Shown in pieces: positions 18,280 to 31,600 of a stretch of DNA of 64,000 nucleotides. A program made the translations under genes and the position numbers. Source of the DNA: Torpedo marmorata (taxonomy: Eukaryota); contig OZ360232.1 in the NCBI GenBank assembly GCA_977017645.1, positions 31,496,001 to 31,560,000 on the forward strand, in the 5' to 3' direction. A model generated the notes under the pieces. That model did not search any database and was not told where the DNA came from. It saw only the letters and a list, made by a program, of their open reading frames with translations. Within the stretch, counting starts at the first letter, position 1. Each line of letters opens with the position of its first letter.

Positions 18280-18863
18280 ACCATAGAACATTACAGCACA
18301 GAATTCAGGCCATTTGGCCCTTCTAGTCTGTGCCAAACTATTATTCTGCCTCATCCCATTAACCTGCACCCAGTCCATAGGCCTCCATACCTCTCCCACC
18401 CAAGTACCTGTCCAAATTGTTCTTAAATATCAAAATTGAGCCCTCATTCACCATCTCAGCTGGCAGCTCGTTCCACACTCCCACCACTCTCTGTGTGAAG
18501 AAGTTCCCCCTCATGTTTCCCCTAAGCTTTTCCCCTTTCACCCTTAACCCATGTCCTCTGGTTTGTATCTCACCTACCCTCAGTGGAAAAAGCCTATCTA
18601 CATTTACTCTGTCTATCCCCCTCATTATTTTAAATACCTCTATCAAATCTCCCCTCATTCTTCTACGCTCCAGGGAATAAAGTCCTAACCTGTTTAACCT
18701 TTCCCTGTAACTCAGTTCCTGAAGTCCGGGCAACATCCCAGTAAATCTTCTCTGCACTCTTTCTATCTTATTGATATCTTTCCTGTAGTTAGGTGACCAA
18801 AACTGCACACAATACTCCAAATTTGGCCTCACCAATGTCTTATACAACTTTACATAACATCCC
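18280..18863 (-). mobile_element. CR1 3' part (left half of a CR1 split by the BEL element)
   Basis: ORF 18359..18847 [24 protein letters not shown]... continues on the far side of the BEL element at 26351-26655. Confidence 0.93.
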
Positions 18864-19287
18864 TGTAAGAGCTGTAGGCTTGATTACTTACCTTGGTCGC
18901 GGCGCTGCGATGTTCTCGGCGGGGGGAAAAAGTATTGGAAAAAGATGGAGGCTTAGAGGAGGGTGAGTGAGATCGCCATATCTTTTATTGACCGTTTCAT
19001 GGAACATTTAGCCACGTTTCATTGAACATTTAAACTCGTTTCATTATGGTTTAAAGTCATTTAATTGAACATCTAAATACAGTCAAAGGAATCGTTTAAA
19101 GGAACACATTAAACATCGTTATCAAGAACTGTTTATATTTAAGTCATTGAAGATTGCTGCAAGTCACGTGTGTAAATAAAGTTTTTTTTTAACATATCGG
19201 ACTTTGTTAGTAAATTAATTGAAACGCGTCAAAAACAAGTATCTCACCTAGCCTCCAAGTGACTATTGTTGGATCGAAGTCACTATA
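18864..19287 (+). repeat. BEL 5' LTR (424 bp, lacks about 190 bp of GC-rich U3)
   Basis: Matches 25737-26350 except for an internal deletion of about 25795-25980 and about 7 substitutions. Confidence 0.93.
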
Positions 19288-19743
19288 TTATTAGTCAATA
19301 AAAGTGGTTGTTTGGAACAGAAAATTGAAGGAAAGAAGATAGAATAATCTCTCTGTGCTTTGGACTGATATTTAAAATAAAATGGCGGCCATCTTGGAGA
19401 TGCCTCGAGTTGGGGGCAGTTTGTAATCCACATCCATCTGCCATGAGTAACAGCCAGAGAGGGAATTAAAGCTTCAAATCTTATAGTAAAGTGTACTATA
19501 AATACGTTGGAGAAACCATTTTTTGGAAAATCAGCGATATTATTGACGGATGTGGTTGAAACTCGTTTGTGAATAGCAGCACATTACAGTCATCTGAAGT
19601 GATAGGCCTAAGTCTGTGGACTCCTTCTGTGTATCTTTGGCAAGTTAGAACACAGATTGGATTTGCTGCCGCTGGTCCATTGGGGACTGTTGATTTGGCT
19701 AGTGTTGTGTATGCTTGAAGGATAGTGGAACAATACGAGTAAA

Positions 19744-20550
19744 ATGGCCACAGCAGCCTCTGATGCAGCAGCCACTGATGTATCAGCAGCTGACGCAGCA
19801 ACCGCTGATGTTGCTGTTAATGACCAACGTATTGAAGACATGAAGGTTGCGGATATTAAAGAAGAATTGAAGCGACTGATAAAGGACATAAGTGGAAATA
19901 AAAAGGTTCTCATCGCAAGATTGAAGCTGGCAAAGGAAAAAGAGGCAGCTTCGTTAGATGAACAAGAAGATAACGTGGAAATAGCTGAAATTGTGTCACC
20001 AAATGAAGAGGATTAAGAAAATGAAGAGGATGAAGATGCAAAGGATATACAATTCGAATTGGAGAAAGAGGTAAGTAAGAAGACAACATATGACGTGCAA
20101 GATGAAATACAAGCATGTGACAGTGTCTCAAATGCTGAAAGCAGAAGAAGCAAACAAAGTTCTGGTTCGAGTTCCAGAGTTTCTCGAACTTCAAGTTCTG
20201 CATCGTCACGTACAAAGATTGAAGTTGACTTGGCCGCTCTTATTGCACAACAAAATTCTCTTAAGGATAAACATGTTTTCGAAGAACAGGAGGAGGAACT
20301 AAGAGAACAGGAGGAACAGCTAAGGCAGAGACAACAGGAGGAGCAGCTAAGGCAGAGCCAACAGCTAAGGCAGAGACAACAGGAGGAGCAGCTAAGGCAG
20401 AGCCAACAGCTAAGGAAGAGACAAGAGCAGCTAAGAAAGAGAAAAGAGCAGCAGGAGCTGGAAACAAATATTGCTATTGCCATGGCCAGAAAGAAAGTAC
20501 TAGAAGGCTCAATGGTATCCGGTGCTAGAAGTAAATTATCTAGTGTCTGA
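19744..20550 (+). pseudogene. N-terminal part of BEL Gag with SAP domain and coiled coil (one in-frame stop at 20014-20016, frameshift near 20522-20550)
   Basis: ORFs 19744..20016 and 20059..20550 are in the same frame. IEDMKVADIKEELKRLIKDISGNKKVLIARLKLA (19831-19932) fits the SAP consensus. An acidic tract, a Ser/Arg tract and QLRQRQQEE repeats follow. Confidence 0.8.
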
Positions 20551-23500
20551 TAATAAAAGGTCATATTTTAAAAAAGAGTCACAGGAAAAGAAACCAACCA
20601 AAAGGGTAGATATTTTAGAACCAAGGATACAAGACTTGCATATACAAGGACAAATCTTTCAACAGCATAGTGGTATCGAGTCACATGTACCAGTGGTAAC
20701 ATCTGAAGACAAAGCTGCGGCTTGGGTTCGGTCGAATGATGCAGCTTCCTTGTTATTTGAGTCAAGCATCAGAAATATGGAAGAAACTACACCAGTGAGG
20801 TTTCCAGATACATTACCTGCAACAAGAGACAGTGAACAGAGCAATGTATTGTCATCCAAGAAAAGACCAAATGAAATCGCTGCATTATTAATTCAGTTAC
20901 AGTCTCTCTCTTCTTTACCCAAGAAAGAGATACAAATTTTTGATGGAGATCCACTTCAGTATCAATCATTTATCAGATATTTCAAACGCAATATTGAAAA
21001 TAAATGCCAAGATCGTGATGAATGTCTTTATTATTTGGAAATGTTCACAAAGGGACATCCAAAAGAACTAGTAAAGAGTTGTCAACATATGTCCTCAGAA
21101 AGAGGATTAGATAGAGCTAAGGCTTTACTGGAACAACATTTTGGCAACAAGCATCGAATTGCTTTAGCTTATATGGATAAAGCTCTTCAATGGACATCAA
21201 TAAAACAAAATGATGTAAAGGCTCTACAAGAATATACTCTATTTTTAAGAGGATGTTGTAATGCCATGGAAGATATCGATAATATTCATGAGCTTGAAGT
21301 GCCTGGTAATATGCGAATCATCTTAGAAAAATTACCTTACAAGTTATGGGATAGGTGGAGAAATTTGGCTTGTGATTTACAAGGAAATTACGGTCGAAGA
21401 GCTACCTTAAAGAATTTGGTAAATTTTCTTGAACGACAGGTGTATATTGAAACAGATCCAATATATGGAAATACCAGAGACAATTCAATGGGCAAAGATG
21501 TAAGGAGGTCTAACTCACAGCCTAGTCCGAAATTGAAAAGGACTACTTTTGCTACTAATGTGTCAGTTATAAATAAAGAAAAGGACAAAGTAAATAAGGA
21601 AAAGGAAAGTTTGCCTGATGAAAAGAGTTGTTTGTTCTGTAAAGGTGGACATTCTTTGGAAATGTGTTTACGATTGGAAAAGAAGGAACATAATGAAAAG
21701 ATCGCTTTCTTAAAGGAAAATGGAATATATTTTAGCTGTTTGTATAAAGGGCACATCAGTAAAAACTGCAAGAAGCAAATTAATTGTAACATATGCAAGT
21801 TGAAACATCCTAGAATTTTGCATATCCATCACAGAAACAAGGAATTGGAAAAGGAGCAAACAGAAACAAAGGAAACAACAGAAAACAATGTTATAACCTC
21901 GGTTCAGACAAGTGGTCTTACCGGGGCCGGTGTGGATAACTGCAAACTTTCGATCGTGCCTGTACAAGTCAAGACCAAGAAAGGGGATGCAACAGTACAA
22001 ACATATGCATTTCTAGACCCAGGCAGCACTGCATCTTTTTGCACGGAAGGACTAATGAATAAACTTAATATACAAGGAAGAAGATCAAGAATTATGTTAA
22101 AAACCATGGGACAAGAAAAGGTCGTTGAAACCAGCATTGTTTCAGGCTTAGAGGTTGCTGGATTGGATGACAAAAAATTTTGTGATCTTCCAAGTTTATA
22201 TACTCAGAAGACTATGCCTGTGCATGAAAGAAATAATCCTCATCAAAAAGATATCCATCATTTAGCTTATCTGTGGAAGGATTATTTACCTGAAATTAAT
22301 TCTGAGATAGAAATGCTGATTGGTTTAGATGTGCCAAAGGTTTTGGAACCACTAGAAGTAATACAGAGTAGAAAAAATGGACCTTACGCTATTAGAACCA
22401 AGCTTGGTTGGACAATCAATGGACCATTGGAAAGAAATAATGATATTGCTCAGGAACAGTTAGCAATAAATATTAATAGAATTTCGGTTGTGAAAGTTGA
22501 TGAGTTAAGCGAAGAGCAAAAAACTATGAATAAGAAAATCACTTTTGAAGAAAAGAAAACAGATCAGTGTGAAAATAAATCAAAGGTATTTAAAACAACA
22601 TTGAAGGAATTATTTTCATCAGAAATGGCTGAAAGTGAAGTATTAGAAGATGTTGCAAATAATACTATTGATTATTCATGTGTAATTGAATCAGATACAG
22701 GAATAAAACAAGTGACTGAAAACAAATCTGAATGTAGATTTTGTAGTTCAGAGGTTACAACAGACAAAGCTAATGAAGAAATATTGCAATGTGATGTAAA
22801 ACTGGAGAACACAGAAAATTGTGCTGATGGAATAAAGAATAATGTGAATGATAATTTAATGCAATTGAATTCAGAGAACAAAATGTTGAAAGGGGAATTG
22901 GAAATATTAGATAATCATGAAAACAGTAAACAGAGAGATTTAATTGTAAGTAAAACTCGCAAAGTCAGAAAGCGGAAGAAAAGAATAACTGCTGAAGAAA
23001 TGAATACAGTTATTGAGAAAAGAGATTCAGCATTATCAAAATGTAAAAGGTTGGAGGAAGAGATTAGTATTTTGAAAGAGAATAAGTTATTGGTTAATAA
23101 CACAAAACAGTTGACTATAAAAAACAATCAAGTATGTAAATTGATACCATTATTTGTGAAAATAAAGAAAGATTTAGAAAACTGGAAAGACTTACCTATA
23201 ACTTTAATGGGAAGAGTAAATTGTATTAAAATGAATGTCTTTCCAAGAATTCAATATCTTTTTCAATCAATTACTTATGGAATTCCTCAAAAATTTTTTA
23301 AAGATTTAAATTCAATTATTAGAACATTTTTATGGAAAGGAAAGTTAGCAAGAGTAGGTATGGAAAAATTAACTTGGAATTATGAAATGGGTGGTCTACA
23401 ACTTCCTAATTTCCAAAATTATTACAAAGCAGCTCAATTAAAATTTGTTAATGAATTTTTTGATTCAACTAAATCTTCTGCTTGGATTAAAATAGAGTTA

Positions 23501-24457
23501 AATAATATAGGAGAAGATTCCAAAGAAGAAATTATTTATAAATGGGATTCTAAATTAATATCAACAAGAAAGAAAAATTCGCCTATTTTTAAACATTTGT
23601 TAGAAATATGGAATAAGACGGATAAGGAAACAGGAGGAAAAGGATTGATTTCTCCAAGGATGCCTTTATATCAAAATGGACTTATTCCATTTACTATTAA
23701 TAATCAATTATTTAAAATTTGGTTTCAAAAAGGAATTAAGAAGATTAATGATTGTTTTAAAGCTGGGAAATGTATTACTTTTCAAAGAATGAAAGATAAA
23801 TTTAATATATTAGATAATACACTTTTTGCTTATTATCAAATTAGAGCTTTTTTGATTGAGAAATTAGGTTATGCTTTGATTCTACCAAGACAGAATGAAT
23901 TAGAATTATTAGTTACTAATGGAGATGTTAATAAATTTATTTCTCAAATGTATAAATTGTTTCAGAGGAAAATGCCTAAAGTAGGATTGCATAAATCAAG
24001 ATTAAAATGGGAATTAGATTTGAATGTAAGAATAGATGAAAATCATTGGAAAGAATTATGTAAATTAAGTATGACGAAGATTATTAATGTTAGATATAGA
24101 TTAGTACAATACAATTTTTTTCATCAATTATATTTAACACCTAAAAAACTAAAGAAATTTAATCCGACACTATCAGGTTTATGTTTTAGATGTAATAAAG
24201 AGGAAGGGTCTTTTGTACACTCTACATGGTTTTGTCCAAAAGTTTATGATTTTTGGTTGAAAGTTAAAAAAATTTTAGATAAAGTATTTAAGATTATATT
24301 TCCAATGGATCCTATGATATTTTTGTTTGGAGATATTAGAAAATTTAGTATTAAGATGAAATTAAATATGTATCAAATAGAATTTTTGCGAATTGCTTTA
24401 GCTGTTTCAAAGAAATGCATTGCTATTACCTGGAAATCTGATTTAGATTTAGGATGA
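20522..24457 (+). CDS. Chimeric 1311-aa ORF: BEL Gag and aspartic protease, MIPOL1-like coiled coil, L1 ORF2 C-terminal region with Zn knuckle
   Basis: BEL motifs run to about 22480, coiled coil 22480-23144, then L1-like LITLMGRVNCIKMNVFPRIQYLFQ...GGLQLPNFQNYYKAAQL...CFRCNKEEGSFVHSTWFC. Expression is unknown. Confidence 0.8.
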   Translation: MLEVNYLVSDNKRSYFKKESQEKKPTKRVDILEPRIQDLHIQGQIFQQHSGIESHVPVVTSEDKAAAWVRSNDAASLLFESSIRNMEETTPVRFPDTLPATRDSEQSNVLSSKKRPNEIAALLIQLQSLSSLPKKEIQIFDGDPLQYQSFIRYFKRNIENKCQDRDECLYYLEMFTKGHPKELVKSCQHMSSERGLDRAKALLEQHFGNKHRIALAYMDKALQWTSIKQNDVKALQEYTLFLRGCCNAMEDIDNIHELEVPGNMRIILEKLPYKLWDRWRNLACDLQGNYGRRATLKNLVNFLERQVYIETDPIYGNTRDNSMGKDVRRSNSQPSPKLKRTTFATNVSVINKEKDKVNKEKESLPDEKSCLFCKGGHSLEMCLRLEKKEHNEKIAFLKENGIYFSCLYKGHISKNCKKQINCNICKLKHPRILHIHHRNKELEKEQTETKETTENNVITSVQTSGLTGAGVDNCKLSIVPVQVKTKKGDATVQTYAFLDPGSTASFCTEGLMNKLNIQGRRSRIMLKTMGQEKVVETSIVSGLEVAGLDDKKFCDLPSLYTQKTMPVHERNNPHQKDIHHLAYLWKDYLPEINSEIEMLIGLDVPKVLEPLEVIQSRKNGPYAIRTKLGWTINGPLERNNDIAQEQLAININRISVVKVDELSEEQKTMNKKITFEEKKTDQCENKSKVFKTTLKELFSSEMAESEVLEDVANNTIDYSCVIESDTGIKQVTENKSECRFCSSEVTTDKANEEILQCDVKLENTENCADGIKNNVNDNLMQLNSENKMLKGELEILDNHENSKQRDLIVSKTRKVRKRKKRITAEEMNTVIEKRDSALSKCKRLEEEISILKENKLLVNNTKQLTIKNNQVCKLIPLFVKIKKDLENWKDLPITLMGRVNCIKMNVFPRIQYLFQSITYGIPQKFFKDLNSIIRTFLWKGKLARVGMEKLTWNYEMGGLQLPNFQNYYKAAQLKFVNEFFDSTKSSAWIKIELNNIGEDSKEEIIYKWDSKLISTRKKNSPIFKHLLEIWNKTDKETGGKGLISPRMPLYQNGLIPFTINNQLFKIWFQKGIKKINDCFKAGKCITFQRMKDKFNILDNTLFAYYQIRAFLIEKLGYALILPRQNELELLVTNGDVNKFISQMYKLFQRKMPKVGLHKSRLKWELDLNVRIDENHWKELCKLSMTKIINVRYRLVQYNFFHQLYLTPKKLKKFNPTLSGLCFRCNKEEGSFVHSTWFCPKVYDFWLKVKKILDKVFKIIFPMDPMIFLFGDIRKFSIKMKLNMYQIEFLRIALAVSKKCIAITWKSDLDLG

Positions 24458-25115
24458 GAAAGATGGCATGCAGAACTTCGTTCGTGTATACCACTTGAAA
24501 AAATTACTTATAATTTACGTAATAAATATCATTTCTTCTTAAAAATTTGGAGCCCATATATGAAAGCTGTTGGTTTAAGGATTTGAAGATCTCTGGATAT
24601 CGGATCTACTGGCATACTTGACCTCCATAATAGAATTAGTTTATAGATTGGCATTCCCCTTACTCTATCTTTTTCTTTCTTTTTCTTCTTCTTTTTTTTT
24701 TTTTATTTTTTTTATTTTTTATTAGATTAGTGGGGTTGGGAGGGTTGGGGAGGGGAGGGAGGGAGGGGGGTGAAAATATATCACAAATAATTTGATAATT
24801 TTATATTTTATTTTATGTATTTTGTGATTTAAAATTTTAAATAAAATATTTTTTAAAAAAGTATGTAATTTGAATGTTCAGTTATTAACAATGCAGAAAG
24901 AATGTGATATTGCATTGCAGAAATGTAACAAGCAAGATGAAGAAATTAAAAAATTTCAAGTTTACCGCAGCAGGGTTGACAATGTATCACATGATATTTT
25001 GACTTCAGATCAAATTATTAATTTCTCAGAAAGAACTGAGACTGAATTGAAAGTTGCAAAATTGGATTTGGAATTGCAGGAAAAGGCAATAGAAACCAAA
25101 GTGGTTAAAGAGACC
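22883..25115 (+). pseudogene. MIPOL1: Captured, intronless MIPOL1-like fragment inside the BEL element (22883-23144 and 24861-25115, split by L1)
   Basis: Rejoined peptide RITAEEMNTVIEKRDSALSKCKRLEEEISILKENKLLVNNTKQLTIKNNQVCNLNVQLLTMQKECDIALQKCNKQDEEIKKFQVYRS closely follows my recollection of vertebrate MIPOL1 (RITAEEMSALIEERDAALSKCKRLEQEL...NNQ...KLEEEIQTLRVYYS). Needs BLAST confirmation. Confidence 0.72.
23145..24858 (+). mobile_element. 5'-truncated L1-clade LINE inserted in the BEL ORF
   Basis: L1 ORF2 post-RT region and Cys/His knuckle. The ORF continues past one stop (WHAELRSCIPLEKITYNLRNKYHFFLKIWSPY). T-rich/G-rich 3'UTR, AATAAA at about 24839 and an A tail. 15-bp TSD AAGTATGTAA(A/T)TTGA at 23130-23144 and 24859-24873. 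Confidence 0.92.
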
Positions 25116-25349
25116 TGTTTATTAAAATCGAAAGGATCAGATAAATATTCAAATTCTGGTTCTAAGAGTTTAAATTCTTCACATGAGAAGTGGAATGCTG
25201 AAGAAAGGAATAAAGTGAAACGACATGCTGAAGAAGTGCATTGTGTTAAATTCAAAAGAAAAACTGTATCTATTTTGTCTGAGGAAGATTTGAGGTTTAC
25301 TAGTCGACATTTTAACTCAAAGATTATGGAGATAAAAGAACTTTAAAGA

Positions 25350-25529
25350 GACTTTGTAATTATTATGGATAATTCAACTCCAAGAAACTCCTGGTTACTT
25401 GGAAAAAATTATTGAGACTATTCAAGACAAAAGGGGACTTGTGCGTCAAGTGCGAATTAAAACTAAGACTGGCTTTCTAAATAGACCTATTAACAAGGTC
25501 TGCCTTCTGTTGGAGACGGAGGAACTTTG
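25350..25529 (+). pseudogene. BEL integrase C-terminal (DUF5641-like) remnant
   Basis: DFVIIMDNSTPRNSWLLGK / IIETIQDKRGLVRQVRIKTKTGFLNRPINKVCLLLE, with a frameshift in an A-run. Confidence 0.85.
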
Positions 25530-25736
25530 ATAAATACAAACTGACTTTATTTGTTGTTGTATACTTCACAGGTTACAGACTTTTTGTTGATTCAGAGTTA
25601 TGGTAAACTCTGGTCTTATGAAGAAAGAAGAAAGAAGATTTGTATATTGTGTGAATGTTATGGTTATTGTTATTTATAATTTATTGTGTAATTATTATTT
25701 AAGACATTGCGTCTAATTATAATAATTAGGGGCCGG

Positions 25737-26350
25737 TATAAGCGCCGTAGGCTTAATTACTTACCTTGGTCGCGGCGCTGCGATGTTCTCGGCGGGTTAC
25801 GGAGGAGTCGCGGTGTTTGTTGGCCGTGCTAGGCCTATTTAGTACTCTGCGCATGCGTTAGAGTGCCGACGTGCGAATGCGCAGTTGGGATTGACGGCAA
25901 TGTGCGCGGTGGAGTGTGCGCGGTGGAGTGTGCGTGGTGGAGTATGCGCAGTAGAATAGGCGCATTGAGCATGTGCGAATCGGGGGGGGAAAAAGTATTG
26001 GAAAAAGATGGAGGCTTAGAGGAGGGTGAGTGAGATCGCCATATCTTTTATTGACCGTTTCATGGAACATTTAGCCACTTTTCATTGAACATTTAAACTC
26101 GTTTCATTATGGTTTAAAGTCATTTAATTGAACATCTAAATACAGTCAAAGGAATCGTTTAAAGGAACTCATTAAACATCGTTATCAAGAACTGTTTATA
26201 TTTAAGTCATTGAAGATTGCTGCAAGTCACGTGTGTAAATAAAGTTTTTTTTTAACATATCGGACTTTGTTAGTAAACTAATTGAAACGCGTCAAAAACA
26301 AGTATCTCACCTAGCCTCCAAGTGACTATTGTTGGATCGAAGTCACTATA
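25737..26350 (+). repeat. BEL 3' LTR (614 bp)
   Basis: Direct repeat of 18864-19287 plus a CpG-rich segment containing tgcgcatgcg. Confidence 0.93.
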
Positions 26351-26655
26351 ATCCCAACTCCTCTACTCAATACTTTGATTAATGAAGGCCAATATGCCAA
26401 CCCTCTCCACCTGTGATGCCACTTTCAGGGAATTATGTATCTGTATTCCCAGATCCCTCTGTTCTACCGCACTCCTCAGTGCTCTACCATTCACCGTGTA
26501 CATCCTTTCTTGCTTTGTCCTTCCAAAATGCAACACCTCACACTTGTCTGCATTAAATTCCATCTGCCACTTTTCAGCCCATTTTTCCAGCTGGTCCAGA
26601 TCCCTCTGCAAGCTTTGAAAACCTTCTTCGCTGTCCACAACGCCTCCAAACTTAC
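26351..26655 (-). mobile_element. CR1 fragment, continuation of 18280-18863
   Basis: KFGGVVDSEEGFQSLQRDLDQLEKWAEKWQMEFNADKCEVLHFG. Confidence 0.92.
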
Positions 26656-28682
26656 CACAGCCTGGTGTGGGTCCCCAGTTCCCACGTCCTGGTGTGTGTC
26701 CCCAGTCCCCACGGCCTGGTGTGTGTCCCCAGTCCCCAGGGCCTGGTGTGTGTCCCCAGTCCCCAGTCCCCACAGCCTGGTGTGTGTCCCCAGTCCCCTC
26801 AGCCTGGTGTGTGTCCCCAGTCCCCAGTCCCCACAGCCTGGTGTGTGTCCCCAGTCCCCAGTCCCCTCAGCCTGGTGTGTGACCCCAGTCCCCTCAGCCT
26901 GGTGTGTGTCCCCAGTCCCCACGGCCTGGTGTGTGTCCCCAGTCCCCTCAGCCTGGTGTGTGTCCCCAGTCCCCACGGCCTGGTGTGTGTCCCCAGTCCC
27001 CACGGCCTGGTGTGGGTCCCCAGTCCCCTCAGCCTGGTGTGTGTCCCCAGTCCCCACGGCCTGGTGTGTGTCCCCAGTCCCCACGGCCTGGTGTGGGTCC
27101 CCAGTTCCCACGTCCTGGTGTGTGTCCCCAGTCCCCACGGCCTGGTGTGTGTCCCCAGTCCCCAGGGCCTGGTGTGTGTCCCCAGTCCCCATGGCCTGGT
27201 GTGTGTCCCCAGTCCCCTCAGCCTGGTGTGTGTCCCCAGTCCCCACGGCCTGGTGTGTGTCCTCAGTCCCCACGGCCTGGTGTGGGTCCCCAGTCCCCAC
27301 GGCCTGGTGTGTGTCCCCAGTTCCCCAGTCCCCATGGCCTGGTGTGTATCCCCAGTCCCCACGGCCTGGTGTATGTCCCCAGTCCCCACGGCCTGGTGTG
27401 TGTCCCCAGTCCCCACGGCCTGGTGTATGTCCCCAGTCCCCACGGCCTTGTGTGGGTCCCCAGTCCCCACGGCCTGGTGTGTGTCCCCAGTCCCCACGGC
27501 CTGGTGTATGTCCCCAGTTCCCACGGCCTGGTGTGTATCCCCAGTCCCCACGGCCTGGTGTGGGTCCCCAATCCCCACGGCCTGGTGTGTGTCCCCAGTC
27601 CCCACGGCCTGGTGTGTGTCCCCAGTCCCCACGGCCTGGTGTGTGTCCCCAGTCCCCACGGCCTGGTGTGTATCCCCAGTCCCCACGGCCTGGTGTGGGT
27701 CCCCAATCCCCACGGCCTGGTGTGTGTCCCCAGTCCCCACGGCCTGGTGTGTGTCCCCAGTCCCCACGGCCTGGTGTATGTCCCCAGTTCCCACGGCCTG
27801 GTGTGTATCCCCAGTCCCCACGGCCTGGTGTGGGTCCCCAATCCCCACGGCCTGGTGTGTGTCCCCAGTCCCCACGGCCTGGTGTGTGTCCCCAGTCCCC
27901 ACGGCCTGGTGTGTGTCCCCAGTCCCCACGGCCTTGAATGGGTCCCCAGTCCCCAGTCCCCACGGCCTGGTGTGTGTCCCCAGTCCCCACGGCCTGGTGT
28001 GTGTCCCCAGACCCCAGTCCCCACGGCCTGGTGTGTGTCCCCAGACCCCAGTCCCCACGGCCTGGTGTGTGTCCCCAGTCCCCACGGCCTGGTGTGTGTC
28101 CCCAGACCCCAGTCCCCACGGCCTGGTGTGTGTCCCCAGTCCCCAGTCCCCACGGCCTGGTGTGTGTCCCCAGTCCCCACGGCCTGGTGTGTGTCCCCAG
28201 ACCCCAGTCCCCACGGCCTGGTGTGTGTCCCCAGTCCCCACGGCCTGGTGTGTGTCCCCAGTCCCCACGGCCTTGAATGGGTCCCCAGTCCCCAGTCCCC
28301 ACGGCCTGGTGTGTGTCCCCAGTCCCCACGGCCTGGTGTGTGTCCCCAGACCCCAGTCCCCACAGCCTGGTGTGGGTCCCCAGTCCCCACGGCCTGGTGT
28401 GTGTCCCCAGTCCCCACAGCCTGGTGTGGGTCCCCCAGTCCCCAGTCCCCACGGCCTGGTGTGTGTCCCCAGTCCCCACGGCCTGGTGTGTGTCCCCAGA
28501 CCCCAGTCCCCACGGCCTGGTGTGGGTCCCCAGTCCCCACGGTCTGGTGTGTGTCCCCAGTCCCCACAGCCTGGTGTGGGTCCCCAGTCCCCACAGCCTG
28601 GTGTGGGTCCCCAGTCCCCACGGCCTGGTGTGTGTCCCCAGTCCCCACGGCCTGGTGTGGGTCCCCCAGTTCCCAGTCCCCA
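26655..28682. repeat. 27-bp minisatellite (ccccacggcctggtgtgtgtccccagt) with 7-bp ccccagt stutters, about 2 kb; resumes at 31799-31840
   Basis: Direct observation. The long ORFs here are translated repeat. Confidence 0.97.
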
Positions 28683-31600
28683 TGGGATCTGTTTTGGGGT
28701 AAGGATGAATTGTCCAGGGGGGACGGGTTGCACCTTAACAAGTGGGGGACCAGCATTCTGGCAGGCAGGTTTGCCACTACTACACGGGTGTGTTTAAACT
28801 AAGTAGTGGGGGGGAGGAGATGAACTGGAAATATAAGGATGGAGTTAAAGAGGTAATTAAGAAAAGTTAAGGAAGACAACAGAATTAACGGGGCAGAAAG
28901 CTCAGGAAGGGATCCGAGAGTATGGCCAAGTGTAATAGGAATCGATGTGAAAGGGGAGGGGAGTAATGGATTAAAAGTATTACATATGAATGCACAAAGT
29001 ATAAGAAATAAAGTGGATGAGCTTGAGGCTCAGTTGGAATTTGGCAAGTATGATGTTGTAGGAATAACAGAGTCATGGCTGCAAGAGAAGCAGGGCTGGG
29101 AAATGAATATTCAAGGTATACGTCCTATCGAAAGAACAGACAGGTGGGCAGAGGGGGTGGAGTGGCTCTGTTGGTGAGGAATGAAATTCAGTCCCTTGCG
29201 AGGGGTGACAAAAAATCAGGAGATGTAGAGTCAGTATGGATAGAACTGAGAAATTGTAAGGGCAAAAAGACCCTAATGGGAGTTATCTACAGGCCCCAAA
29301 CAGTAGCTTGGATATTGGGTGCAAGTTGAATCAAGAGTTAAAATTGGCATGTCGCAAAGGTAATGCTACGGTTGTTATGGGGGATTTCAACATGCAGGTA
29401 GACTGGGAAAATCAGGATGGTACTGGACCCCAAGAGAGGGAGTTTGTGGAGTGCCTCCGAGATGGATTCTTAGAGCAGCTTGTACTAGAGCCTACCAGGG
29501 AGAAGGCAATTCTGGATTTAGTGTTGTGTAGTGAACCGGATTTGATAAGGGAACTCGAGGTAAAGGAGCCATTAGGAGGTAGTGACCATAATATGATAAG
29601 TTTTAATTTACAATTTGAGAGGGAGAAGGGAAAATCGGAAGTGTCATTATTACAGTTGAACAAAGGGGACAATGGAGCCATGATGGAGGAGCTGGCCAAA
29701 CTTGACTGGAAAGATACCCTAGCAGGGATGACAGTGGAACAACAATGGCAGGTATTTCTGGGAATAATACAGAAGGTGCAGGATCAGTTCATTCCAAAGA
29801 GGAAGAAAGATTCTAAGGGGAGTAAGGGATGACCGTGGCTGACAAGGGAAGTCAAGGACAGTATAAAAATAAAAGAGAAGAAGTATAACACAGCAAAGAT
29901 GAGCAGGAAGCCAGAGGATTGGGAAACTTTTAAAGAGCAACAGAAGATAACTAAAAAGGCAATACGGGGAGAAAAGATGAGGTATGAAGGTAGGCTAGCC
30001 AAGAATATAAAGGAGGATAGTAAATGCTTCTTAAGGTACGTGAAGAGGAAAAAAATTGTTAAGATCAAAGTTGGGCCCTTGAAGACAGAAGCGGGTGAAA
30101 TTATTATGGGGAACAAGGAAATAACAGAAGAGATGAACAGATACTTTGGATCTGTCTTTACTAGGGAAGACACAAACAACCGCCCAGATGTAATAGTGGA
30201 CAGAGGACCTAGGGTAACGGAGGAACTGAAGGAAATTCACATTAGGCAGAAAATGGTGTTGAGTAGACTAATGGGACTGAAGGCTGATAAATCCCTAGGG
30301 CCTGATGGTCTGCATCCCAGGGTGCTTAAGGATGCATTGGTAATCATTTCCCAATGTTCTATAGATTCAGGATCAGTTCCTGCGGATTGGAGGATAGCTA
30401 ATATTATCCTACTTTTTAAGAAAGGAGGGAGAGAGAAAACAGGGAATTATAGACCAGTTAGCCTGACATCAGTGGTGGGGAAGATGCTGGAGTCAATTAT
30501 AAAAGATGAAATAACGGCACATTTGGATAGCAGTAACAGGATCGGTCCGAGTCAGCATGGATTTACAAAGGGGAAATCATGCTTGACTAATCTTCTGGAA
30601 TTTTTTGAGGATGTAACTATGAAAATGGACAAGGGAGAGCTAGTGGATGTAGTGTACCTGGACTTTCAAAATTAGAGCACATGGTATTGGGGGTAGGGTA
30701 CTGACATGGATAGAAAATTGGTTGGCAGACAGGAAACAACGAGTAGGGATTAACGAGTCCCTTTCAGAATGGCAGGCAGTGACTAGTGGGGTACCAAAAG
30801 GCTCGGTGCTGGGACCGCAGCTGTTTACAATATTCATTAATTATTTAGATGAAGGGATTTAAAGTAACATTAGCAAATTTGCAGATGACACAAAGCTGGG
30901 TGGCAGAGTGAAATGTGAGGAGGATGTTATGAGAATGCAGGGTGACTTGGACAGGTTGGGCGAGTGGGCAGATGCATGGCAGATGCAGTTTAATGTGGAT
31001 AAATGTGAGGTTATCCATTTTGGTGGCAAGAACAGGGAGGCAGATTACTATCTGAATGGTGTCAAGTTAGGAAAAGGGGAAGTACAACGAAATCTAGGTG
31101 TTCTTGTTCATCAGTCACTGAAAGTAAGCATGCAGGTACAGCAGGCAGTGAAGAAAGCTAATGGCATGTTGGCCTTCATAACAAGGGGAGTTGAGTATAA
31201 GAGCAGAGGTCCTTCTGCAGTTGTACAGGGCCCTGGTGAGACCACACCTGGAGTATTGTGTGCAGTTTTGGTCTCCAGGTTTGAGGGAGGACATTCTTGC
31301 TATTGAGGGAGTGCAGCGTAGGTTCACAAGGTTAATTCCCGGATGGCGGGACTGTCATACGTTGAAAGATTGGAGCGATTGGGCTTGTATACACTGGAAT
31401 TTAGAAGGATGAGAGGGGATCTGATTGAAACATATAAGATTATTAAGGGATTGGACACACTAGAGGCAGGAAACATGTTCCCGATGTTGGGGGAGTCAAG
31501 AACCAGAGGCCACCGTTTAAGAATAAGGGGTAGGCCATTTAGAACGGAGTTGAGGAAAAACCTTTTCACCCAGAGAGTTGTGGATCTGTGGAATGCTCTG

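Follow-up and report, generated by a model that had tools for sequence, protein, structure and literature searches.

We analyzed a 64,000-nucleotide (nt) stretch of Torpedo marmorata DNA (assembly GCA_977017645.1, contig OZ360232.1, positions 31,496,001 to 31,560,000 of the forward strand; hereafter the window), which contains, at positions 18864-26350, a BEL/Pao retrotransposon bounded by long terminal repeats (LTRs). In place of pol, and in frame behind Gag and protease, the family to which this element belongs carries three spliced pieces of host genes, namely BRCA1, MIPOL1, and Elongin A (ELOA), and within the MIPOL1 piece two exons are joined back to front at their exact ends. We consider it likely that this is a pol-less, high-copy family which captured BRCA1, back-spliced MIPOL1, and ELOA sequence by template switching, is copied in trans, and has its frame kept open for the benefit of its RNA.

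Spliced host gene pieces in place of pol

The original prediction, made from the letters of the window, had described a BEL/Pao element with a MIPOL1-like sequence where pol should be, interrupted by a later L1 insertion. The L1 is 5'-truncated, lies at 23145-24858 on the forward strand, as do the parts of the element given below, and is flanked by a 15-bp target-site duplication (TSD; 23130-23144 and 24859-24873). It is private to the window copy, as its site is uninterrupted in 28 of 29 related loci and the 29th (L010) ends at that point, and the cargo analyses were based on natural copies without it. The frame that follows the protease in such a natural copy had batoid MIPOL1 as its best match (E 7e-28), and among the matches listed (120 of 188) every named match was MIPOL1, which bears out the proposed identity. 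A search of the genome with MIPOL1 returned many loci in which residues ~340-470 are directly followed by residues 210-300, and the out-of-order segment noted earlier is real. These loci form an older subfamily, 84-100% identical to the host MIPOL1 exons and 89-98% identical to the host exons overall, whereas the window copy belongs to a younger one. In the older subfamily the frame runs on into Elongin A (PF06881, E 1e-15; PDB 8oev, E 6e-40), and the stretch ahead of MIPOL1 is BRCA1 (batoid protein, E 7e-60, 69%; 7 of 7 matches named BRCA1), the third cargo gene, which was identified by protein searches. The prediction was therefore right that spliced host RNA replaces pol in frame but wrong in allowing for one cargo gene only: BRCA1 and ELOA had been missed, and the peptide MLKGELEIL, which had been given to MIPOL1, belongs to BRCA1.

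We mapped the host genes to contigs C40 (MIPOL1), C41 (ELOA), and C61 (BRCA1) of the 6.2-Gb genome. The MIPOL1 C terminus and a BRCA1 stretch each match once, so that the genome represents one haplotype; the host MIPOL1 model shows 92% identity with the Narcine protein and 80% with the Pristis protein. The BRCA1 piece (four exons) and the ELOA piece (five exons) are spliced and colinear with their host genes, and MIPOL1 stood beside ELOA in 19 of 20 loci found with ELOA. An ELOA-like spliced gene on contig C25 (175318134-175337050, minus strand) was rejected as the donor, with 74-77% identity versus 87-99% for the gene on C41. We also note an annotated Narcine BRCA1 isoform (P0123) without the RING domain, of which residues 1-200 resemble a retroelement Gag, although this is an impression only. 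When annotated proteins of 603-2000 amino acids were searched for fusions of Gag with the cargo, two MIPOL1 proteins were the only result, which is weak evidence of absence.

In the window, the BRCA1 piece occupies 22515-22943 (72-80% identity to the host; 72% for one host exon and 80% for the start of the large exon). The MIPOL1 piece, split by the L1, extends over 22935-25112 (78-90%) and consists of the 3' part of exon f with exon g (22935-23144, 80-90%), exon h (24876-24970, 85%), and exons b, partly deleted, and c (24971-25112). The ELOA remnant follows at 25103-25324 (81-89%) and stops short of the Elongin-BC-binding region that older copies retain. The Gag-protease-cargo frame is closed at 25344-25346, ~390 nt before the 3' LTR, by a stop codon common to the young subfamily. 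Searches of Pfam and PDB with the window's two cargo halves returned no family and only weak coiled-coil matches (E ~0.1).

The MIPOL1 junction and selection on the frame

Between host and young cargo the ratio of nonsynonymous to synonymous substitution rates (dN/dS) was 0.68 over 349 codons, compared with 0.73 (0.50-1.01) in a neutral simulation with the observed substitution spectrum. None of the pieces taken singly differed significantly from neutrality (BRCA1, 0.53, P 0.12; MIPOL1, 0.96; ELOA, 0.55, P 0.14), and the gag-protease part gave 0.27 from old to young. The analogy drawn earlier with retroviral gag-onc fusions is not supported in so far as it implies a useful host protein, since the amino acids of the cargo have changed at the pace expected under neutrality. 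Stop codons behave differently. From the rates at sites unable to make a stop, taken by neighboring base, 9-12 stops per copy were expected and 0.86 were seen, none of them in more than 5 of 29 copies and none shared by a majority; 8-11 shared stops were expected and none was seen (P(0) <=3e-4). Further, all five deletions that distinguish young from old copies (24, 120, 81, 195, and 111 nt) are multiples of three (~0.004 by chance), a count that sets aside single-base slips private to one old comparator. Two whole copies retain frames of 1268 and 1310 amino acids that run from Gag into the cargo, and copies decay after insertion. Taken together, the neutral drift of the amino acids, the lack of any fixed stop, and the in-frame deletions lead us to conclude that selection keeps the frame open and does not keep the host protein sequence. 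As a separate observation, the young cargo (22515-25324 in the window) has lost cytosines on its sense strand: 39-52% of host C are changed, rising to 83% where the next base is C, with C>A at 15%, and its GC content has fallen from 36-40% to 28-32%, below the 34% of the helper itself.

It could be argued that the cargo protein is functional, as in the gag-onc viruses, either by forming a coiled-coil scaffold or, where the old subfamily is concerned, as an Elongin-BC/Cullin adaptor that degrades a host restriction factor. All three captures are sense and in frame, the frame is clearly selected, the cassette survived a change of backbone, the Elongin A domain still reads in frame in old copies, with the E values given above, and the BRCA1 and ELOA ratios lie under their neutral means. 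However, these two ratios fall inside the neutral range, and the MIPOL1 ratio of 0.96 contrasts with 0.27 for gag-protease; the subfamily with the greatest success has shed the Elongin domain and, through the five deletions, ~530 nt of cargo; and the BRCA1 piece, of low complexity, includes neither RING nor BRCT domains. We therefore regard a functional cargo protein as unlikely, although the older form, judged by its domain content, may have made a Gag-linked Elongin-BC adaptor.

The MIPOL1 piece differs from the two colinear pieces in its exon order. Exons b to h of the host gene measure 136, 106, 130, 34, 171, 108, and 95 nt, the inner splice sites examined are AG/GT in 8 of 8 cases, and exons b and c lie ~206 kb upstream of exon h. 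In the element the exon order is f (3' part only), g, h, b, c, and d (18 nt), and the last base of h (h[95], the donor side) joins the first base of b (b[1], the acceptor side) in all 13 old copies printed as well as in the window (between 24970 and 24971); a strict 19-letter junction pattern was present at 38 of 224 loci, a set that includes host, random, and duplicate loci. A circle of exons b to h would have 780 nt, equal phase at its start and end, and no stop all round, and the captured piece, at 585 of the 780 nt, amounts to less than one turn. Exons outside b to h (a and i) were found in none of 16 sequences tested, and the C terminus of MIPOL1 has its single match in the genome, as given above. 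The order of the exons is thus altered, as had been predicted, but it is an exact back-splice junction and not a rearranged scramble. The DNA of the element shows a reversed exon-exon junction at exact splice sites, no outside sequence, and no poly(A), the marks of a retrocopy derived from circular RNA (circRNA). Because the exons are joined back to front at their exact ends, the MIPOL1 piece was likely captured from a circular RNA, and we infer that such an RNA is the simplest source of the h-b junction. In a public DNA run, possibly from the assembly's own sample, 16 contigs with loose ends at exon h read into exon b, with the element allele, which departs from that of the host 17 nt into exon b. 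In a presumed RNA run (X5; the RNA type is a guess), neither the linear h-to-i junction nor a host-allele circle junction was seen at host exon h.

The same junction could have come from a linear RNA with repeated exons, produced by trans-splicing of two pre-mRNAs or by a tandem duplication since lost, with the family and the other captures unchanged. Linear repeated exons would yield an identical junction sequence, and other routes to noncolinear junctions are acknowledged in the available text of Dong et al. (PMC4897178). Against this, the 320-kb stretch that separates exon a from exon i has exon b and exon c once each; MIPOL1 proteins of three cartilaginous fish and one turtle align with the host model as single blocks with no repeat; and the captured piece is free of exons outside b-h and shorter than one turn of the circle. 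We consider a linear source improbable, somewhat more so than a functional cargo protein, and favor the circle. Two further explanations fare much worse. First, the open frame could be a by-product, in copies too young or under mutation too biased for stops to become fixed, without any selection. The substitution bias is indeed strong and context-dependent, but the 8-11 shared stops are expected even with neighboring-base rates, and the five shared deletions are all in frame, which makes this explanation very improbable. Second, an enzyme that jumped backward on linear MIPOL1 mRNA and landed on exon ends by chance, for which speak at least four other jumps by the enzyme here and the 3-nt microhomology at the h/b junction, can be set aside almost entirely, because back-jumps that join exon ends make up only 27 of 816,707 on a linear mRNA model (3e-5), or 9 of 17,851 (5e-4) if at least 3 nt of microhomology is required, and the other cargo joins fall inside exons.

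Backbone, helper, and a route to the cassette

The window element has its LTRs at 18864-19287 and 25737-26350. Of the 423 sites that align between them 7 differ, 190 nt of the 3' LTR (25794-25983) are missing from the 5' LTR, and the TSD ATCCC stands on both flanks (18859-18863 and 26351-26355), in agreement with the complete LTR-to-LTR element first described. gag (19744-22000) comprises a SAP domain, DUF1759, and a Cys-His region. In the window copy gag is itself disrupted, with a stop codon at 20014-20016 and a change of frame near 20545, which corrects the earlier description. The aspartyl protease, with its AFLDPGS motif and a linker, occupies 22001-22519 (a weak Pfam match, E 0.045, below the curated cut-off), and sequence resembling the helper ends at ~22519. 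Pfam also detected, at 25348-25530, a DUF5641 match, the helper-like C-terminal integrase remnant that had been suspected, which is mostly absent from the old cargo subfamily. As further predicted, no core of reverse transcriptase (RT), RNase H, or integrase remains: that region of the helper polyprotein had zero matches in the window element. No env-sized frame was present between the integrase tail and the 3' LTR in the element or the helper, a purine-rich tract lies just upstream of the 3' LTR, and no obvious tRNA primer site was recognized in the family. We conclude that the LTRs with a 5-bp TSD, the Pao-type gag (DUF1759), the protease, and the DUF5641 tail place the element in BEL/Pao and that, lacking a frame for RT, Peptidase_A17/RNase H, and integrase, it is a nonautonomous derivative. 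We note that the LTRs of helper and cargo copies begin with TG and end in TA and not the usual CA (window 18864-18865 and 26349-26350; L113, L115, L123); that a variable 18/27-nt repeat at 20288-20470 in gag codes for a Glu/Gln coiled stretch, the length of which varies among copies and helpers; that the same L1 family has repeatedly inserted into this AT-rich element at different sites (L008, L011, L014, L024, L040, L129, L130); and that the BEL copy itself is inserted in a CR1-like element holding a long 27-bp tandem repeat (26628-28800).

The genome contained 6,618 candidates for Peptidase_A17. Of 10 pol-bearing elements retrieved, 9 are 87-91% identical to the window to the left and right of the cargo, with matches running up to 22519 and resuming in the 3' part (8 of them from 25348); 6 have single frames of more than 2000 amino acids, their LTR pairs are 94-100% identical, and RT, RNase H, and integrase were present in both elements scanned (n=2). 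The partner expected for a nonautonomous family is therefore at hand, and it is likely this pol-bearing relative that copies the family in trans. LTR-pair identity was 94.6-97.7% for young cargo copies (six full pairs) and ~88-92% for old ones. A tree was built from the 49 natural copies in which 250 or more codons could be aligned; in it the old copies (18) separated from the young copies and the helper (31) with 100/100 support, although the bootstrap is not fully settled. The net synonymous distance (dS) of gag-protease was 0.044 between young cargo copies and the helper and 0.48 between young and old cargo copies, that of the cargo was 0.17-0.28 from old to young, and the young form carries ~140 nt of integrase tail absent from old copies. 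These unequal distances of gag-protease and cargo suggest that the cassette moved by recombination from an old helper backbone onto a newer one.

The cargo search yielded 32,588 candidates, of which 150 were scored, and the 149 matches other than the window's own were 91-96% identical. Fetched DNA totalling 870 kb, of which 300 kb lay at round coordinates and 570 kb around host genes, contained six cargo copies and two pol hits, which scales to ~43,000 cargo copies (95% limits 16,000-93,000); the 300 kb alone held two cargo copies, and 2.8% of its bases match at >=80%, solo LTRs and helper-like sequence included. This is no one-off insertion; replication long after capture, as had been suggested, is supported, and copies that have their switch points in common attest to repeated retroposition. 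Sequencing runs labelled as three other organisms covered 30 of 30 cargo-region bins and a fourth run 22 of 30; one 930-nt contig from those runs spans protease, BRCA1, and MIPOL1, with 24 differences. Seventeen near-identical cargo copies lie in a repeated array on C25 (202.7-205.3 Mb), likely a segmental or tandem duplication, and four cargo-bearing copies lie in introns of host MIPOL1 (C40:64321001-64641000; L056, L057, L065, L072), one of them ~1.4 kb from exon e.

Co-packaged host RNAs would have been gained through template switching by reverse transcriptase, as modelled in the available text of Tan et al. (PMC5131818). Proceeding from 3' to 5', the enzyme would have switched from the integrase tail to ELOA mRNA and from there into exon d of the 780-nt MIPOL1 circle (exons b-h), of which it would have copied 585 nt, the back-splice included. 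A switch to BRCA1 mRNA and a last one to the element, behind the protease, would have followed, whether in one run or several. The cassette would then have acted as a pol-sized, stop-free spacer, carried to the newer helper backbone by later recombination in shared particles, with periodic recombination with the helper. Why stops are purged is the least certain step. Long 3' untranslated regions trigger mRNA decay, and a stop behind the protease would lie ~1,500 nt from the 3' LTR, whereas the present one lies ~390 nt from it; since an early stop would lengthen this untranslated stretch, RNA stability is favored, and an open frame may protect the genomic RNA from nonsense-mediated decay. To this last reason we give an even chance. 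Overall, we lean toward the view that a circular RNA, caught within a retrotransposon particle, became together with the BRCA1 and ELOA pieces a permanent and portable replacement for pol, handed between helpers, kept stop-free by selection, making up a few percent of the genome, and outnumbering the helper.

Several points weigh against this account. With regard to the circle, exon repetition in a linear transcript is something that sequence alone cannot separate from a circular template, and the MIPOL1 circle is reconstructed from element DNA and not seen as RNA. With regard to switching, microhomology is clear only at the BRCA1/MIPOL1 join (~6 of 7 nt), the MIPOL1/ELOA join has an 18-nt filler, the old subfamily's own helper, which bears on the outer joins, was not found (best 84%, 30 pol loci), and no one- or two-gene intermediate was present among 32 old-type loci. 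With regard to the frame, the limits of the dN/dS test are wide, only 4 of 34 young copies are open through the cargo, and the 29 young loci were best protein matches and so are biased against stops in 93 codons. With regard to present activity, no cargo copy was seen with identical LTRs (94.6-98.3%). As to the filler itself (L167:6683-6706 and 10 other old copies), its first 11 nt equal the start of the old-subfamily LTR in three copies, possibly the trace of a jump through the LTR end.

Comparison with known systems

Each ingredient of the element has a precedent, and we found none for the combination or the scale. The literature searched, from which subscription journals are mostly missing, described neither this family nor a back-splice junction fixed in a Gag fusion; nothing came up under circMIPOL1, and papers on MIPOL1 and retrotransposons, judged by their listing, are not on this subject. 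In acutely transforming retroviruses, replication genes are replaced by spliced host sequence fused to Gag, replication depends on a helper, and the v-onc gene is kept for its function. The element resembles them in having host sequence fused to Gag in place of replication genes and in helper dependence, and differs in being a germline family, in the absence of an env-sized frame, and in a cargo that is not conserved at the protein level (0.68 versus neutral 0.73).

On this reading the captured host RNA is kept over tens of thousands of copies by selection on an open frame alone, which makes the family a natural experiment on RNA surveillance of retroelements. Further, the genome is seeded with ~4e4 partial sense copies of BRCA1, MIPOL1, and ELOA sequence, which could give rise to small RNAs directed at these host genes and are liable to mislead both annotation and the calling of circRNAs in this lineage.

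Maize Bs1 is an LTR element with segments of three host genes, a hybrid open frame, and shared switch points (PMC5131818, PMC13317346). It is alike in the three-gene hybrid frame and the shared switch points and differs in being from a plant and in having one to five copies; the descriptions of Bs1 in the available parts of these two papers include no back-splice junction.

LTR-mediated retrocopies in animals were described by Tan et al. in 2016 (PMC5131818), whose available text includes a mosquito case in BEL18_AG, by which mRNA capture by a BEL element is already in print, and a four-gene "super" retrocopy of mouse. The element likewise has spliced, partial host mRNA between two LTRs. The published cases are alike in that this mRNA stands in place of internal open reading frames, stems from several parental genes, is often in frame, and undergoes secondary rounds of retroposition. 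Microsimilarity at switch points is described for them; here it is clear only at BRCA1/MIPOL1, with filler at MIPOL1/ELOA. In that text the retrocopies are single- or few-copy and mostly young loci, and the word "circular" is absent from it; the family described here numbers ~4e4 copies in two subfamilies, includes a back-splice junction, has passed its cargo to a new backbone, and shows selection on the frame that can be measured.

Pseudogenes derived from circRNA were described by Dong et al. in 2016 (PMC4897178), among them 33 mouse copies of circRFWD2 with LTR-enriched flanks. They share with the element a noncolinear exon junction, the absence of outside exons and of poly(A), and an association with LTRs. 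The available text calls the mechanism "mysterious" and reports enrichment of the flanks only; the circRFWD2 copies may likewise sit inside one LTR element. In the element, by contrast, the junction lies inside the LTRs, in frame with Gag-protease and between two captures, at a roughly thousand-fold higher copy number. A back-splice junction in this position, inside a defined LTR element, makes the question of circRNA retrotransposition concrete and testable and, if our account is true, provides both a direct mechanism for it and a fossil record of germline circRNA.

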